This document shows, piece by piece, positions 44,777-49,533 of a DNA stretch of 64,000 bases. Numbering within the stretch: the first letter of the stretch is position 1; every line of letters begins with the position of its first letter. The notes under the pieces are model-generated. The model had not been told where the DNA came from, did not search any database, and saw nothing but the letters and a program-made list of their open reading frames with translations. Made by a program: the position numbers and the translations under genes. Source of the stretch: Gemmatimonadaceae bacterium (lineage in GTDB: Bacteria; Gemmatimonadota; Gemmatimonadetes; Gemmatimonadales; Gemmatimonadaceae); contig JBBDYC010000008.1 in NCBI GenBank assembly GCA_040901985.1, forward strand, positions 112,490 through 176,489. Direction: 5' to 3'.

Positions 44777-45450
44777 GGCGCCTGCGGGAGCGTGTAGTCC
44801 CAGATCCGCTCCGAGCCGTCGGGCTGCGAATAGCGCGCGCGGACGGTCTCACCCGGACGCGCGGTCACGATCCCATTCCGCGGCCGCGGCCCGCCGTGCG
44901 TGAATTTCAAGGCCCCGATGTAGTACTGGCCAAGGATCTCGAACGACGCCGGCTCGGTGGTGGCGTAGTGGAGGTTTGCCGAGCGCACGCCGGAGTACTG
45001 GCGGACGGCCAGCAGGGTCCGGTCGAGGCTGCCGAGCGTGTAGTAGAAATCCCGTCCGGGCACGTCGTTGCCGATCCAACGCCCGCCGAGCGACCGCACA
45101 ATCGCCTCGGCCTCGCGTGGGTCGCGGCCGTCGCGCATCGTCACGGTGAGCCGCTGGCACTCGTAGATCCACTTCCGGCGGTCGTGACAATAGCCGAAGC
45201 CGATGCGGACCACCTCGCTGTCGCCCGCGCTCGTGATGATGTCAATCGGGATCACCGTACCGACGGGGAGCCGATAGTCGAGGTCGAGCGGCTGGGCGGC
45301 GACGCCGATCAGTCCGCCGTCGGTGGCATCGCCCCAAAGGTAGATGTGCAGTTCCGGCCGGAGCTCAGGGGCGAGGAGGGGTGCCGTCGGTGCCACATCG
45401 CACGAGACGAGCGCAACGGCCAGCAGGAGGCCTGCGCCGCCACTCCTCAC
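44773..45450 (-). CDS. Hypothetical lipoprotein
   Basis: Lipobox LVSC; coupled to the upstream cupredoxin. Confidence 0.65.
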   Translation of the reverse strand: MRSGGAGLLLAVALVSCDVAPTAPLLAPELRPELHIYLWGDATDGGLIGVAAQPLDLDYRLPVGTVIPIDIITSAGDSEVVRIGFGYCHDRRKWIYECQRLTVTMRDGRDPREAEAIVRSLGGRWIGNDVPGRDFYYTLGSLDRTLLAVRQYSGVRSANLHYATTEPASFEILGQYYIGALKFTHGGPRPRNGIVTARPGETVRARYSQPDGSERIWDYTLPQAP

Positions 45451-45791
45451 TCGACGATGATCGTGCCCGACATTGCCGCGCCGTGGAGCGTGCAGAGGTA
45501 CGGGTAGCTGCCGACCGTCGGAAAGTCGCGCTGGTAGGTCCCGGACGACTGGTTGACCGAGGCGGGGCCGTCATCGAATGTGACATTGTGCAGCGCGCTG
45601 CCGGCGTTCCACGTCCAAGTCACCGTGGAGCCGCTCGGCACCCTGGAGGTGGACGGGCTGAAGAAGTTGTTGCCGACCTTGATCTCCGTGCTTGTGCCGC
45701 TGCCGCCGGTGATGACGCCGTCACCGCAGGCGGCCAGCGCCGCGACCACCACCATCGCACCGAGTACTCGGCGAATGCGCATTGCGTCCAT
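45447..45791 (-). CDS. Plastocyanin/azurin-family copper-binding lipoprotein
   Basis: GGAGG-ATG 45791; LAAC; HNVTF...YLCTLH...M type-1 Cu ligands. Confidence 0.88.
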   Translation of the reverse strand: MDAMRIRRVLGAMVVVAALAACGDGVITGGSGTSTEIKVGNNFFSPSTSRVPSGSTVTWTWNAGSALHNVTFDDGPASVNQSSGTYQRDFPTVGSYPYLCTLHGAAMSGTIIVE

Positions 45792-45823
45792 TGCCACCTC
45801 CGGAGATGGAGTCTGGGCAGACG

Positions 45824-45852
45824 TTGACGGCGCGCGCAAGGCCGTGTATCGT
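45824..45852 (+). promoter_or_regulatory. Sigma70-type promoter of the phhA leader
   Basis: TTGACG-N17-TATCGT; ATG 7 nt downstream. Confidence 0.75.
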
Positions 45853-45859
45853 GAGGAAG

Positions 45860-45952
45860 ATGCGCACCACCACTACCCCCGCGACGTATTCGTACGTCAG
45901 CACCTACGCACCCCGTGACCCGGGGCGTGGAGCTTGGGGTGTGCGCACGTAA
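45860..45952 (+). CDS. Putative attenuator leader peptide MRTTTTPATYSYVSTYAPRDPGRGAWGVRT
   Basis: Manual translation; Tyr at codons 10, 12, 16; lies between promoter and terminator upstream of phhA. Confidence 0.7.
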   Translation: MRTTTTPATYSYVSTYAPRDPGRGAWGVRT

Positions 45953-45977
45953 CGACGCGCAACGACCGATTCCTCCG

Positions 45978-46009
45978 CGGCCCGTGGACCTCCACGGGCC
46001 GTTTTTTTT
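45978..46009 (+). terminator. Attenuator terminator upstream of phhA
   Basis: cggcccgtgg-acct-ccacgggccg followed by T8. Confidence 0.9.
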
Positions 46010-46033
46010 CGTCCCTCAGCCGAGAGCACCCCC

Positions 46034-46813
46034 ATGCAGCCCCATCCAGATCACGCCGCGCCGTCCGTCGTCGCCTCCGAGGCGCTCCCCGCGTTCGTCG
46101 AGCAGCGCTACGCGGCGTACACCGACGAGGAGCACGACGTCTGGGGGATCCTGTACGCGCGGCGGATGGCGGCGCTCGAGGAGACCGCCAGCCGGGTCTT
46201 CCTGGATGGCGCCGAGCGAATTGGCCTCGCGCCCAACCGTGTGCCCGAGCTGGCCGAGGTGAACCGGCGGTTGGGGCCGACCACTGGCTGGAACGCCGTC
46301 GGGGTGGGCGGCTTCATCCCAGCCGCCGGATTCTTCCAATGCCTCGCGCAACGCCGCTTTCCGACGACGCTGATCGTGCGGCCGCGCGCGCAGCTCGATT
46401 ACCTCCCCGAGCCGGACATCTTCCACGACGTGTTCGGGCACGTGCCGCTCCACGCCGACCCGGTCTTCGCCGATTTCCTGCAGCGCTTCGGCGCGCTGGC
46501 GGCGACGGCCACCACCGAGGCGGAGACGACGGCGATGGCGCGGCTCTTCTGGTTCACCGTCGAGTTCGGCCTGGTGCGCGAGCGCGGTGCGACGCGGATC
46601 TACGGCAGCGGGTTGATTTCGTCGCACGGCGATGCCGCCAACGCGCTCGGCCCTGCCTGCGACCGGCGCCCGTTCACGCTCGACGCGGTGATCGGCCAGC
46701 CGTTCGAGATTGACCGGCTGCAGGACGTGCTCTTCGTGGTGGAGTCGTTCGACCAGCTCTTTGAGGCGGTGGAGGCGCTCTGGGCGCGGCGCGGCGGCGG
46801 GGGCGCGCGATGA
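46034..46813 (+). CDS. phhA: Phenylalanine 4-hydroxylase
   Basis: YLPEPDIFHDVFGHVP, FWFTVEFGL, YGSGLISS. Confidence 0.92.
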   Translation: MQPHPDHAAPSVVASEALPAFVEQRYAAYTDEEHDVWGILYARRMAALEETASRVFLDGAERIGLAPNRVPELAEVNRRLGPTTGWNAVGVGGFIPAAGFFQCLAQRRFPTTLIVRPRAQLDYLPEPDIFHDVFGHVPLHADPVFADFLQRFGALAATATTEAETTAMARLFWFTVEFGLVRERGATRIYGSGLISSHGDAANALGPACDRRPFTLDAVIGQPFEIDRLQDVLFVVESFDQLFEAVEALWARRGGGGAR

Positions 46814-46853
46814 AGTTGCTCCGGCCTCCGGCGCGGACTAGGTTGCGCGGGGC

Positions 46854-47171
46854 ATGACTCCCTCCTCCGACGCCCGCCGCCAGTTGCTCGGCGCGGCGAA
46901 GAAGTTCCTGCTCGACTCGCCGAAGGCGCCGTCCGTGGCGCCGGTCGTCCCGCCGCGCCTTACGCCCGCCGCCCTGGAGAAGATCCCGATGTCCCGCTCC
47001 CGCGACCGCATCCTCGCCAACCTCGAGGAGATGTACACCGAGGCCTTCCAGCGGGCCAAGGAATCGGGCGACGACGCCCAGATGGCGACGCTCGACTTTG
47101 CCTACCGCCGCGAGCAGCTCTATTTCGAGATCCTGCTCGACGTGCGCGATGCCGTCGAGCGGAAGGGCTGA
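46854..47171 (+). CDS. Hypothetical helical protein
   Basis: ORF with typical codon usage downstream of phhA. Confidence 0.65.
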   Translation: MTPSSDARRQLLGAAKKFLLDSPKAPSVAPVVPPRLTPAALEKIPMSRSRDRILANLEEMYTEAFQRAKESGDDAQMATLDFAYRREQLYFEILLDVRDAVERKG

Positions 47172-47196
47172 GGACGCACGGTCGCCGGACGCGCCG

Positions 47197-47403
47197 ATGC
47201 TCCGCCTGATCGTCAACGCCCGCATCGCGACCGGTGATCCCAGGCGCCCGTGGGCCGACGCGCTGCTGCTCGACGGGGACCGGGTGATGGCGATCGGGGC
47301 GAGCGCCGAGCTGCGCAAGCGCGCCCGGGCGGCGGACGTCGAGGTCGTGGATGCGCAGGGGGGCGTCGTCGAACCCGACGGCGCCCCCTACGTCACCCGG
47401 TGA
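47197..47403 (+). CDS. Small protein resembling an amidohydrolase N-terminal beta-domain
   Basis: IVNARIATGDPRRPWADALLLDGDRVMAIG...VVDAQGGVVEP; lacks the DxHxH catalytic barrel. Confidence 0.55.
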   Translation: MLRLIVNARIATGDPRRPWADALLLDGDRVMAIGASAELRKRARAADVEVVDAQGGVVEPDGAPYVTR

Positions 47404-47424
47404 GGCGCGATGCTCTGCACGTGG

Positions 47425-49533
47425 TCAGAACGCGGTGAGCTCCTCGAAGGCCCGCGCGAAGTCCGCCACCTGCGGCAGGATCGCGTCCTCGAGGGACGGG
47501 GCGTAGCCGACGAAGGTGTCGGTGCTCGCCACGCGCTTCACCGGCGCGTCGAGCCAGGCGAAGCAGTCGTCGGCGATCCGCGCCGCGATCTCAGCGCCGT
47601 ACCCCCACGAGATTGAGTCCTCGTACGCCACGAGCGCGCGGCCGGTCTTCCGCACCGACGCATAGACTGCCTCGCGGTCCCACGGCGCGAGCGTGCGAAG
47701 GTCAAGCACCTCGACCGCGATGCCCTTCTCCTCCTCGACCTGGTTGGCGGCGGCGAGCGCGCGCTGCACGGTGGCGCCGTAGGTCACGACCGTTGCATCG
47801 CGCCCCTCCTTCACGACCCGCGCCTTGCCGAACGGAATCATGAAGTTCGGGCCCGGATAGGCGGACTTGTTGTAGGTCTGGCGGTAGAGGTGCTTGTGTT
47901 CGAGGAAAATCACCGGGTCGTCGCAGCGGATTGCCGTCCGCAACAGTCCGTTGGCGTCGAGGGCGTTGCTGGGGCAGACGACACGGAGTCCGGGGCAGTG
48001 CGTGAAGAGCGAGGCGCCGGTCTGCGAGTGGTAGATCGCGCCACGGATGTAGCCGCCGTACGTGGTCCGGACCACCACCGGCGCGGCGAAGGCGTTGTTC
48101 GACCGCCAGCGCATCGTCGCCAGCTCGTCGCGCAGCTGCATGTAGGCCGGCCAGATGTAGTCGAAGAACTGGATCTCGACGACCGGCTTGAAGCCGCGGA
48201 GCGCCATCCCGATGGCGCGGCCGATGATGTTGGCCTCGGCGAGGGGCGAGTTGTAGACGCGCGTGCCGCCGAACTCCTTCTGCAGCCCCCACGTCACCTT
48301 GAAGACGCCGCCCTTGCCCTTGACCTTGCCGAGGTACTCCTCGCGCGAGACGTCGGCCACGTCCTCGCCGAAGACCACGATCGTCCCGTCGCGCCGCATC
48401 TCGTCCTTCATCGCCGCGTTGAGGAGGTCCACCATCGTCGTCGGGTCGCCGGAGAAGTGCGGGTCGTCCTCGGTGTCGAATTGCTCGCCGGTCGGGTCCA
48501 CGTCGGGCGAATACACGGCGAACGGCACCGTCGAGGGGTCGGGCTGCGGCTGGGCGAGCGCATCGTCAGTGGCCGCCAGCACCTCGGCATCCACCTCCTC
48601 GTGCAGCTTCGCCAGCTGCGCCTCGGTCACATAGCTCTCGTCGAGCAGCCACTTGGGGAACGTGACGAGCGGGTCGCGCGCCGCATCGGCGTTCCGTTCC
48701 GTGTCGGGGCGGTACATCACCTCGTCGTCGGAGAGCGAATGTGAATAGGGGCGGATGACCTTGGCGTGGACGAGCGCCGGTCCCTTTCGCTCCCGCGCGT
48801 AGGCGACGGCCTTCTGAATCACGTCATACGACGCGAGGAGGTCGCAGCCGTCCACCTCCTGGACGAGGAGTCCGGGGAACGACGCGACGAGTTTGGAGAT
48901 CGAGCCGCCTGCGGTGTTGACCTCGACCGGGACCGAGATGGCGTAGCCGTTGTCCTCGACGAGGTAGACGACCGGCGCCTTGAGGTTGCAGGCCGAGTTG
49001 AGCGACTCCCAGAACTCACCCTCGGACGTGGTGCCGTCGCCGGTGGTCACGAGGACGACTTCGTCCTTCCTGAAGTCGTCCTTGATGCCGAGGGTCTTGG
49101 CGCGGAGCACGGCCTCGGCGGAGCCGACCGCCTGCAGGAACTGCGTCCCGGTGGGGGACGAGGTGGAGACGATGTTGAGCTTCCGGTGGCCCCAGTGCGA
49201 CGGCATCTGGCGGCCGCCGGAGTTGGGGTCGATCGCTGCGCCGACGGCGGAGTAGAGCATCTCGGCCGGCGTCATCCCGAGCTGCAGGCAGAGCGCGCGG
49301 TCGCGGTAATACAGGTAGAACCAGTCGTGGGCCGGCTTGAGGACCATCCCGGCGGCGGTGAGCACGGCCTCGTGGCCGGCGCCGGAGATCTGGAAGAAGA
49401 TCTTGTTCTGGCGCTTGAGCTGGATCTCCTTGTCGTCGAGGCGGCGCGACAGGAGCATCGTGCGGTAGGCGGCGACGAGCTGGTCCTTCGTGAGGCCGTG
49501 GGTCGCTCGGCGGGCCTTGGCGGAGGTGGCCAT
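47425..49533 (-). CDS. 2-oxoacid (likely branched-chain) dehydrogenase E1 alpha/beta fusion
   Basis: GDGTTSEG...N TPP motif, [20 protein letters not shown]. Confidence 0.92.

Follow-up and report, generated by a model that had tools for sequence, protein, structure and literature searches.

A candidate tyrosine-sensing leader-peptide attenuator before the phenylalanine hydroxylase gene phhA in Gemmatimonadota

The phhA gene of a Gemmatimonadaceae bacterium is preceded by a leader that is very probably a ribosome-mediated transcription attenuator sensing tRNA-Tyr, with phhA turned on when charged tRNA-Tyr is scarce. The leader lies in a stretch of 64,000 nucleotides (the window), and its features are collected in Table 1. 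Its anatomy is conserved among relatives, and across the wider family of such elements the codon run in the leader matches the gene that lies downstream. A Tyr-sensing attenuator had been proposed in a first-pass annotation of this DNA, and this reading is supported by conservation, by the missing TyrA, by folding of masked leaders, and by related leaders before tyrA and aroF-CM-tyrA.

Table 1. Features of the phhA leader region, in window coordinates.
Feature	Position	Strand	Basis or detail
Sigma-70-type promoter: -35 TTGACG (45824-45829), 17 nt, -10 TATCGT (45847-45852)	45824..45852	+	Sequence
Leader ORF, 30 codons, probably leaderless	45860..45952	+	Tyr codons at 45887, 45893, 45905
UUCG-capped small hairpin spanning Tyr10-Tyr12	45883..45898	+	-6.5 kcal/mol, window copy alone
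Segment 1, anti-antiterminator strand, starting at the last Tyr codon	45904..45915	+	1:2 hairpin, -14.3 kcal/mol
Segment 2, antiterminator 5' strand, encoding Pro-Gly-Arg-Gly	45919..45932	+	Folding; third-position G conservation
Segment 3, common to antiterminator 2:3 and terminator 3:4	45973..45987	+	Folding, alignment
Intrinsic terminator, stem 3:4 and T8	45977..46009	+	Hairpin search; compensatory changes above all shuffles
GAGAG, possible phhA ribosome-binding site, outside the terminator	46022..46026	+	Sequence; putative
phhA, phenylalanine 4-monooxygenase, 259 aa	46034..46813	+	NF008877, PF00351, PDB 1LTU

Anatomy of the leader and its target gene

Within positions 45300-47500 of the window (2.2 kb), TTGACG-N17-TATCGT is the sole promoter-like site, against a mean of 0.1 in shuffled sequences. 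The leader ATG follows at 45860, 7 nt past the -10 element, and the predicted start of transcription is at or adjacent to it. In 38 of 43 homologous leaders there is likewise a -35 element and a relaxed -10 element with 5-10 nt to the ATG. The peptide, MRTTTTPATYSYVSTYAPRDPGRGAWGVRT, has Tyr at codons 10, 12, and 16, Trp at codon 26, seven Thr residues, and no Phe. Both promoter and reading frame are as the first-pass annotation described them, coordinates and residues included.

A 10-bp hairpin with a T8 tract had also been reported just before phhA. It is confirmed at its coordinates, and the stem (45977-46002) is made up of 10 Watson-Crick pairs and one G-U pair around a 4-nt loop (-23.6 kcal/mol), with T8 at 46002-46009. 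This is the only terminator-like site within 45300-47500, but shuffled sequences give 0.9 such sites on average, so the terminator taken alone does not go beyond chance. The pattern describing the element family has one match in the window and none in 100 shuffles, and a scan of the source genome for further units of promoter, short ORF, and terminator found only the one before phhA. The leader peptide has no Pfam match. A covariance search of Rfam (E up to 10) gave six matches, none of which is a Trp, Phe, His, Thr, or Leu leader family, and a T-box match at the locus is absent from the same search.

The product of phhA scores 306 bits against the NCBIfam model NF008877 (cut-off 247) and slightly below the cut-off of TIGR01267 (251/264.75). 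It aligns to the phenylalanine 4-hydroxylase 1LTU in the PDB (E 1.5e-55), and the H-x4-H and E motifs, which we take to be the iron ligands, are kept. Whether the genome lacks tyrA was a question raised with the first-pass annotation, and the answer is that neither a PDH_N match nor a match to a relative's TyrA was found in the source genome (G000), which is 99.97% complete; as a control, the PDH_N search matched in 14 of 14 genomes. DAHP synthase-family matches, chorismate synthase (aroC), prephenate dehydratase, and pterin-4a-carbinolamine dehydratase (PCD) are present, and HPPD is encoded on another contig. Chorismate mutase of either type was not found in the source genome, and Phe may therefore be imported instead of synthesized. 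Since TyrA was not found, PhhA is likely to be the route to Tyr in this genome, and it is the sole one detected there.

Directly downstream of phhA, at 46816-47171 of the window, a promoter-like TTGCTC ... TAGGTT stands immediately before the ATG of a 105-aa ORF that has no family match. This is probably another leaderless transcript, and phhA is therefore likely not co-transcribed with that ORF.

Competing helices and the proposed switch

Segment 2 had been predicted to have two alternative partners, and this is borne out by folding. It can pair with segment 1 in the hairpin 1:2 or with segment 3 in the antiterminator 2:3. Read by hand, 11 of 12 positions in 45921-45932 pair with 45973-45984, and RNAduplex gives -24.8 kcal/mol for 45919-45933 with 45972-45987. 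The 186-nt leader as a whole folds at z = -2.94.

We infer a switch made up of leaderless initiation, stalling, and read-through. Transcription would start at or adjacent to the ATG, and the leader would be translated as a leaderless mRNA. When Tyr is plentiful, the ribosome would pass segment 2 and reach the stop codon, 16 codons past the last Tyr, allowing 3:4 to form and RNA polymerase to terminate at the U tract, 24 nt upstream of phhA. When Tyr-tRNA is low, the ribosome would stall at Y10-Y16 and cover segment 1; 2:3 would pair before segment 4 is transcribed, and polymerase would read into phhA. PhhA, along with the separately encoded pterin-4a-carbinolamine dehydratase, would then convert Phe to Tyr, and because PhhA makes Tyr this would close a product-feedback loop in a genome without a detectable TyrA.

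The geometry of the window copy was analysed by a codon scan with equilibrium folding. Stalls at about codons 10-17 disrupt 1:2 and retain 2:3, and stalls from codon 20 onward, Trp26 included, remove 2:3. Together with the spacing between the Tyr codons and segment 2, this places a stalled ribosome where it covers segment 1 and spares segment 2. For stalls at codons 1-9, 2:3 also beats 1:2 at equilibrium, so equilibrium folding alone does not define the sensing window. Folding with segment 1 masked, suggested at the outset, gave the predicted result across relatives: in nascent RNA ending at the terminator loop, with the mask extended 10 nt beyond the last Tyr, 2:3 forms in 23 of 23 leaders. 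Unmasked nascent RNA forms 2:3 in 5 of 23 and 1:2 in 17 of 23, and with the ribosome at or past the stop codon (masked) 2:3 forms in 0 of 23. Once the leader is complete, every one of the four masking states yields the terminator (mean 9.8-10.5 bp). As the complete leader settles into the terminator at equilibrium, the switch would have to be kinetic, as in trp.

Covariation of the helices had been put forward as a further check, and it is seen beyond all shuffles for the terminator 3:4 and not for the antiterminator 2:3. In 24 aligned leaders, six pairs of the 1:2 plus 3:4 structure are changed on both sides, a number reached by 0 of 500 shuffles; the signal is mainly in the terminator and was confirmed with 40 unique leaders. 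On those 40 leaders the 1:2 covariation is inflated, because the best-pairing register was chosen, and the 24-leader alignment was relied on instead. Segment 1 is paired (1:2) in 84.7% of cells of alignment A2, and the 2:3 helix is paired in 80% of cells compared with 33-48% for slid controls. The count of both-side changes in 2:3 was reached by 221 of 500 and by 430 of 2000 shuffles, because its core pairs are invariant. Two other observations lend support, on comparison of sequences, to an RNA-level constraint on 2:3. Within segment 2, 37 of 42 leaders have G at the third position of a codon that may encode Thr, Pro, or Ala (51-65% as the background in the genome). At the first 2:3 pair, 35 of the 51 Tyr leaders that were parsed (16 unparsed) have C-G and 6 of the 12 His leaders have G-C, a flip that is probably one event.

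Distribution of the leader family

In a sample of 61 close-relative genomes with loci chosen by protein alone, 30 have phhA. All 23 phhA loci at 64-100% PhhA identity have both a terminator and a leader containing 2-5 Tyr codons. The distance from the last Tyr to the stop is 16 codons in 16 of these and 15-17 in 21, and the peptide outside the Tyr cluster shows no conservation. Tyr codons, ORF, spacing, and terminator are thus kept in 23 of 23 close phhA loci, where the first-pass annotation had looked to the conservation of Tyr codons and ORF to decide the matter. None of the seven more distant phhA loci among the 61 relatives has such a leader.

A larger sample of 301 genomes from the phylum includes 108 with phhA. 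Among its 33 high-scoring phhA loci (G197 left out, L201 scored by eye) the leader is present in 24 and absent in nine, and in the subset of 23 low-scoring loci that was read a Tyr leader occurs in one (L213). In a quick tree calculated from 73 PhhA rows, from which L183 and the frameshifted L023 were omitted, a branch with support of 100 separates two groups. All 43 leader-bearing rows fall in one of them, along with 11 leader-less ones. The second clade, on the other side, has a leader in 0 of 19 rows. Seven second-clade loci were checked: phhA adjoins fumarylacetoacetase or HPPD genes at L027, L028, L226, and L222, and not at the three others.

The 43 unique leaders were picked by protein and are kin, so that the counts that follow do not come from independent samples. 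Tyr makes up 12.7% of their residues compared with 1.9% in the genome's long ORFs. All have at least two Tyr codons, none has two or more Phe, 16 contain Trp, and 34 have at least two Thr. Their 149 Tyr codons are TAC in 85 cases and TAT in 64, with TAT at 21% in the genome. The last Tyr lies five codons ahead of the segment-2 codon in 35 of 42. A TyrA match was found in 8 of 23 leader-bearing genomes, in 4 of 9 leader-less genomes of the same PhhA group, and in 195 of 301 overall. The element is therefore not a marker of TyrA loss, and the idea that the leader occurs only where TyrA is missing was rejected.

Some individual loci differ from the common arrangement. For example, one genome has two phhA copies (L207 and L208, on G247:C23 and C13), each with a near-identical Tyr/Trp leader, and at L023 (G026:C75) the leader is intact and phhA is split into two matches, a probable frameshift or assembly error. 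At L193, L194, L195, and L198, a phhA of the leader clade lies behind a sensor kinase-like gene, with the leader and an obvious ATG start both absent.

The same leader is also found before tyrA in two genomes, G018 and G002, both of which have the leader before phhA as well. A pattern scan of genome contigs, defined by two Tyr codons and segments 1-3 and without reference to segment 4 or any gene, found at least 120 stretches. Among the matches listed, 70 of 118 parsed have a terminator, and these lie before phhA (40), aroF (24), and tyrA (3), at contig ends (2), and in one case at a site later placed before tyrA. None of the 48 parsed matches without a terminator, again among those listed, is located before phhA, aroF, or tyrA. 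Of the 27 genomes with an aroF or tyrA leader among the matches listed, 24 have a PDH_N match. It lies about 1.5-2 kb downstream of the aroF leader on the same contig in 9 of 14 aroF cases with printed coordinates, and chorismate mutase is situated between aroF and PDH_N in both cases checked (aroF-CM-tyrA). Named records with the RNA family are mostly Gemmatimonadota among the matches listed; in 80 named rows of these, the terminator-bearing matches include three Acidobacteria and one labelled Bifidobacteriaceae. A single Tyr leader stands before phhA at L286 (G402:C17), with aroF directly after, and a Phe/Tyr leader precedes aroF and prephenate dehydratase at L297 (G213:C54).

A covariance model built from 24 Tyr leaders matched 82 of 141 genomes of the family Gemmatimonadaceae. 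From the matches listed, 89 were read: 27 are before phhA, 36 before aroF, 4 before tyrA or CM-tyrA, 12 before hisG, 1 before hom, 3 before aspartate-tRNA ligase, and 6 before others. Having been trained on Tyr leaders, the model favours Tyr, and the His, Thr, and Asp matches are the informative part. The target of the 12 His-rich leaders was recognized as hisG through TIGR00070 in ten cases and by its N-terminus in one, and one is at a contig end; these matches are weak (E about 1e-7 to 1e-4). Among the matches listed, each of the 26 unique phhA leaders contains two or more Tyr and none has three His, and all 11 hisG leaders have at least three His and none has two Tyr. The ratio of Phe to Tyr among the listed matches is 12:92 in phhA leaders compared with 50:130 in aroF leaders, which are kin and not independent; fewer Phe per Tyr would be expected if PhhA should not answer a shortage of Phe.

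In the His-rich hisG leaders (L310, L312-L314, L316, L317, L320, L324, L326, L327, L329, and L330) segment 2 and the terminator core are as in the Tyr family, with one pair flipped. Tyr and His leaders are likely of common ancestry. At L311 (G420:C198:24692-24812) a related scaffold whose leader carries a Thr-codon run as well as an internal Met precedes homoserine dehydrogenase (hom). The scaffold also occurs before a non-discriminating-type aspartate-tRNA ligase gene (aspS) at L276 (G421:C18:4425-4553), L305 (G396:C48), and L304 (G442:C52). A clear Asp/Asn leader is seen in L276 only, where a promoter and a leader of 30 codons, three of them for Asp and one for Asn, make up a candidate Asp/Asn-sensing attenuator.

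It may be that Gemmatimonadota carry one portable, leaderless attenuator cassette retuned by exchange of the codon run: Tyr for phhA, tyrA, and aroF-CM-tyrA, His for hisG, Thr for hom, and Asp for aspS. The Tyr form would then be a multi-gene, ribosome-sensed regulon that marks one whole PhhA clade as Tyr-making rather than Phe-degrading. We hold this broader proposal to be about as likely as not.

Alternative explanations and known systems

The first-pass annotation had named the Thr run and the single Trp codon as alternative sensors, and the attenuator could be real but multivalent, answering also to Thr (codons 3-6 and Thr15), to Trp, or to general slowing of the ribosome. The frequency of Thr in the leaders (at least two in 34 of 43) would fit this, as would the position of Thr15, Ser11, and Ser14 within the modelled sensing window, the Thr run on the same scaffold before hom in L311, and the finding that stalls at codons 3-6 cut 1:2 to as few as about four pairs. 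However, Tyr alone reaches two or more in all 43 leaders and is clustered five codons ahead of segment 2 in 35 of 42, and Thr is about equally frequent (2.3-2.5 per leader) in His, aroF, and phhA leaders among the matches listed. The Thr run is disfavoured as a sensor, as stalls at codons 3-6 leave about 4-10 of the 1:2 pairs. Trp sensing was rejected: because Trp26 is located beyond segment 2, stalling at this codon abolishes 2:3, and Trp is present in only 16 of 43 leaders. Multivalence of this kind appears improbable. Even less probable, in our estimate, is a constitutive or leaky terminator beside an ORF that encodes a small functional peptide or belongs to a short RNA, with 2:3 a by-product of similarity between the G+C-rich segments 2 and 4. 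Such a terminator would be in keeping with a 2:3 helix that lacks covariation and with the dominance of the terminator at equilibrium, but a functional peptide would not be expected to go unconserved beyond the Tyr cluster. Nor would a by-product explain the third-position G of segment 2 where the residue changes, the first 2:3 pair that differs between Tyr and His leaders, or a codon run that changes with the downstream pathway.

The least probable explanation, for which we see only a very slight chance, is that control is exerted at the initiation of phhA translation or by a DNA-binding regulator of the PhhR/TyrR or Lrp type, with the leader secondary. Precedents exist in the accessible text of earlier papers: Pseudomonas and Shewanella have phhA under the control of PhhR/TyrR (PMC1173090, PMC3223726), as the first-pass annotation stated for PhhR in Pseudomonas (PMC1173090), and mycobacterial leaderless Cys ORFs act on a downstream ribosome-binding site (10.1101/834739). 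In the window, however, the hairpin ends in T8 with the possible ribosome-binding site outside it, the divergent gene upstream of phhA is cupredoxin-like and not a regulator, and the source genome has no HTH_50 (TyrR-type) match over the cut-off.

The Tyr-sensing attenuator that we favour is classical in design, with a textbook mechanism, and for its Tyr version we found no published counterpart. The trpL, pheL-pheA, hisL, and thrL leaders of enterobacteria are the classical leader-peptide attenuators. The phhA leader is like them in its short ORF with a run of cognate codons, its 1:2, 2:3, and 3:4 helices, which are predicted to be mutually exclusive, and its intrinsic terminator before a biosynthetic gene. 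It is unlike them in its Tyr codons, in its targets (phhA, tyrA, and aroF-CM-tyrA), in being probably leaderless, in having no Rfam or peptide Pfam match, and in its occurrence in the phylum Gemmatimonadota.

A search of the open literature, with older comparative predictions of attenuators and T-boxes outside its scope, found no published Tyr leader-peptide attenuator. The main texts of PMC11109978, PMC5314783, and PMC2965389 contain neither 'tyrosine' nor 'phhA'. The closest published analogue comes from the Bacillus cereus group, where a T-box precedes the phenylalanine-4-hydroxylase gene and, in the text available to us, makes phhA answer to tRNA charging, with Tyr biosynthesis as the context (Wels et al. 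2008, PMC2494555); that text names no specifier codon. Product sensing of phhA through tRNA charging, as first proposed, therefore has a published precedent (PMC2494555). In a T-box the RNA itself binds the uncharged tRNA, with no leader ORF involved, and the phhA leader has no T-box match. Ribosome-mediated attenuation is also proposed, in the available sections of Brewer et al. (2021, PMC8632094), for an Acholeplasma element, uORFC-13-1, that lies ahead of aroF. It shares a uORF and terminator before aroF with the present family, and differs in that the authors read it as Phe-sensing, it has a ribosome-binding site, it is restricted to Acholeplasma, and those sections draw no link to phhA. 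The polycysteine leaderless sORFs of mycobacteria, described as a 'Cys ribulon' in the consulted part of Canestrari et al. (10.1101/834739), are also leaderless short ORFs that sense one amino acid at several loci, but they respond to Cys and act on translation initiation, in a model without an intrinsic terminator.

The PhhR/TyrR systems of Pseudomonas and Shewanella concern the same enzyme family, but in the excerpts available they rely on a protein activator of a catabolic operon, a logic opposite to that of the phhA leader (PMC1173090, PMC3223726). In these excerpts, Song et al. (PMC1173090) deal with PhhR and with putative attenuators before tyrA operons, for which no leader peptides are named, and Rodionov et al. 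(PMC3223726) list six Shewanella attenuators, none of them for Tyr. GapMind, in the portion available (PMC7311316), proposes PAH as a route to Tyr in bacteria lacking TyrA (Dyella, Legionella, and Echinicola).

If the proposed mechanism holds, the list of amino acids that leader-peptide attenuators sense would grow to include Tyr. There would also be regulatory evidence for one biosynthetic PhhA clade, a point relevant to the question of whether PAH in bacteria is catabolic or supplies Tyr. In uncultured Gemmatimonadota, the leader RNA could serve as a marker when routes to Tyr are annotated. Furthermore, a scaffold common to His, Thr, and Asp versions would make the evolution of attenuators by codon swapping directly testable with one reporter.

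At two loci, L212 (G188:C5) and L214 (G168:C14), genes for divergent aromatic hydroxylases (42-45% identity) were observed behind a different kind of short ORF, in which Tyr is absent and several Cys codons are present, along with a hairpin and a U tract.
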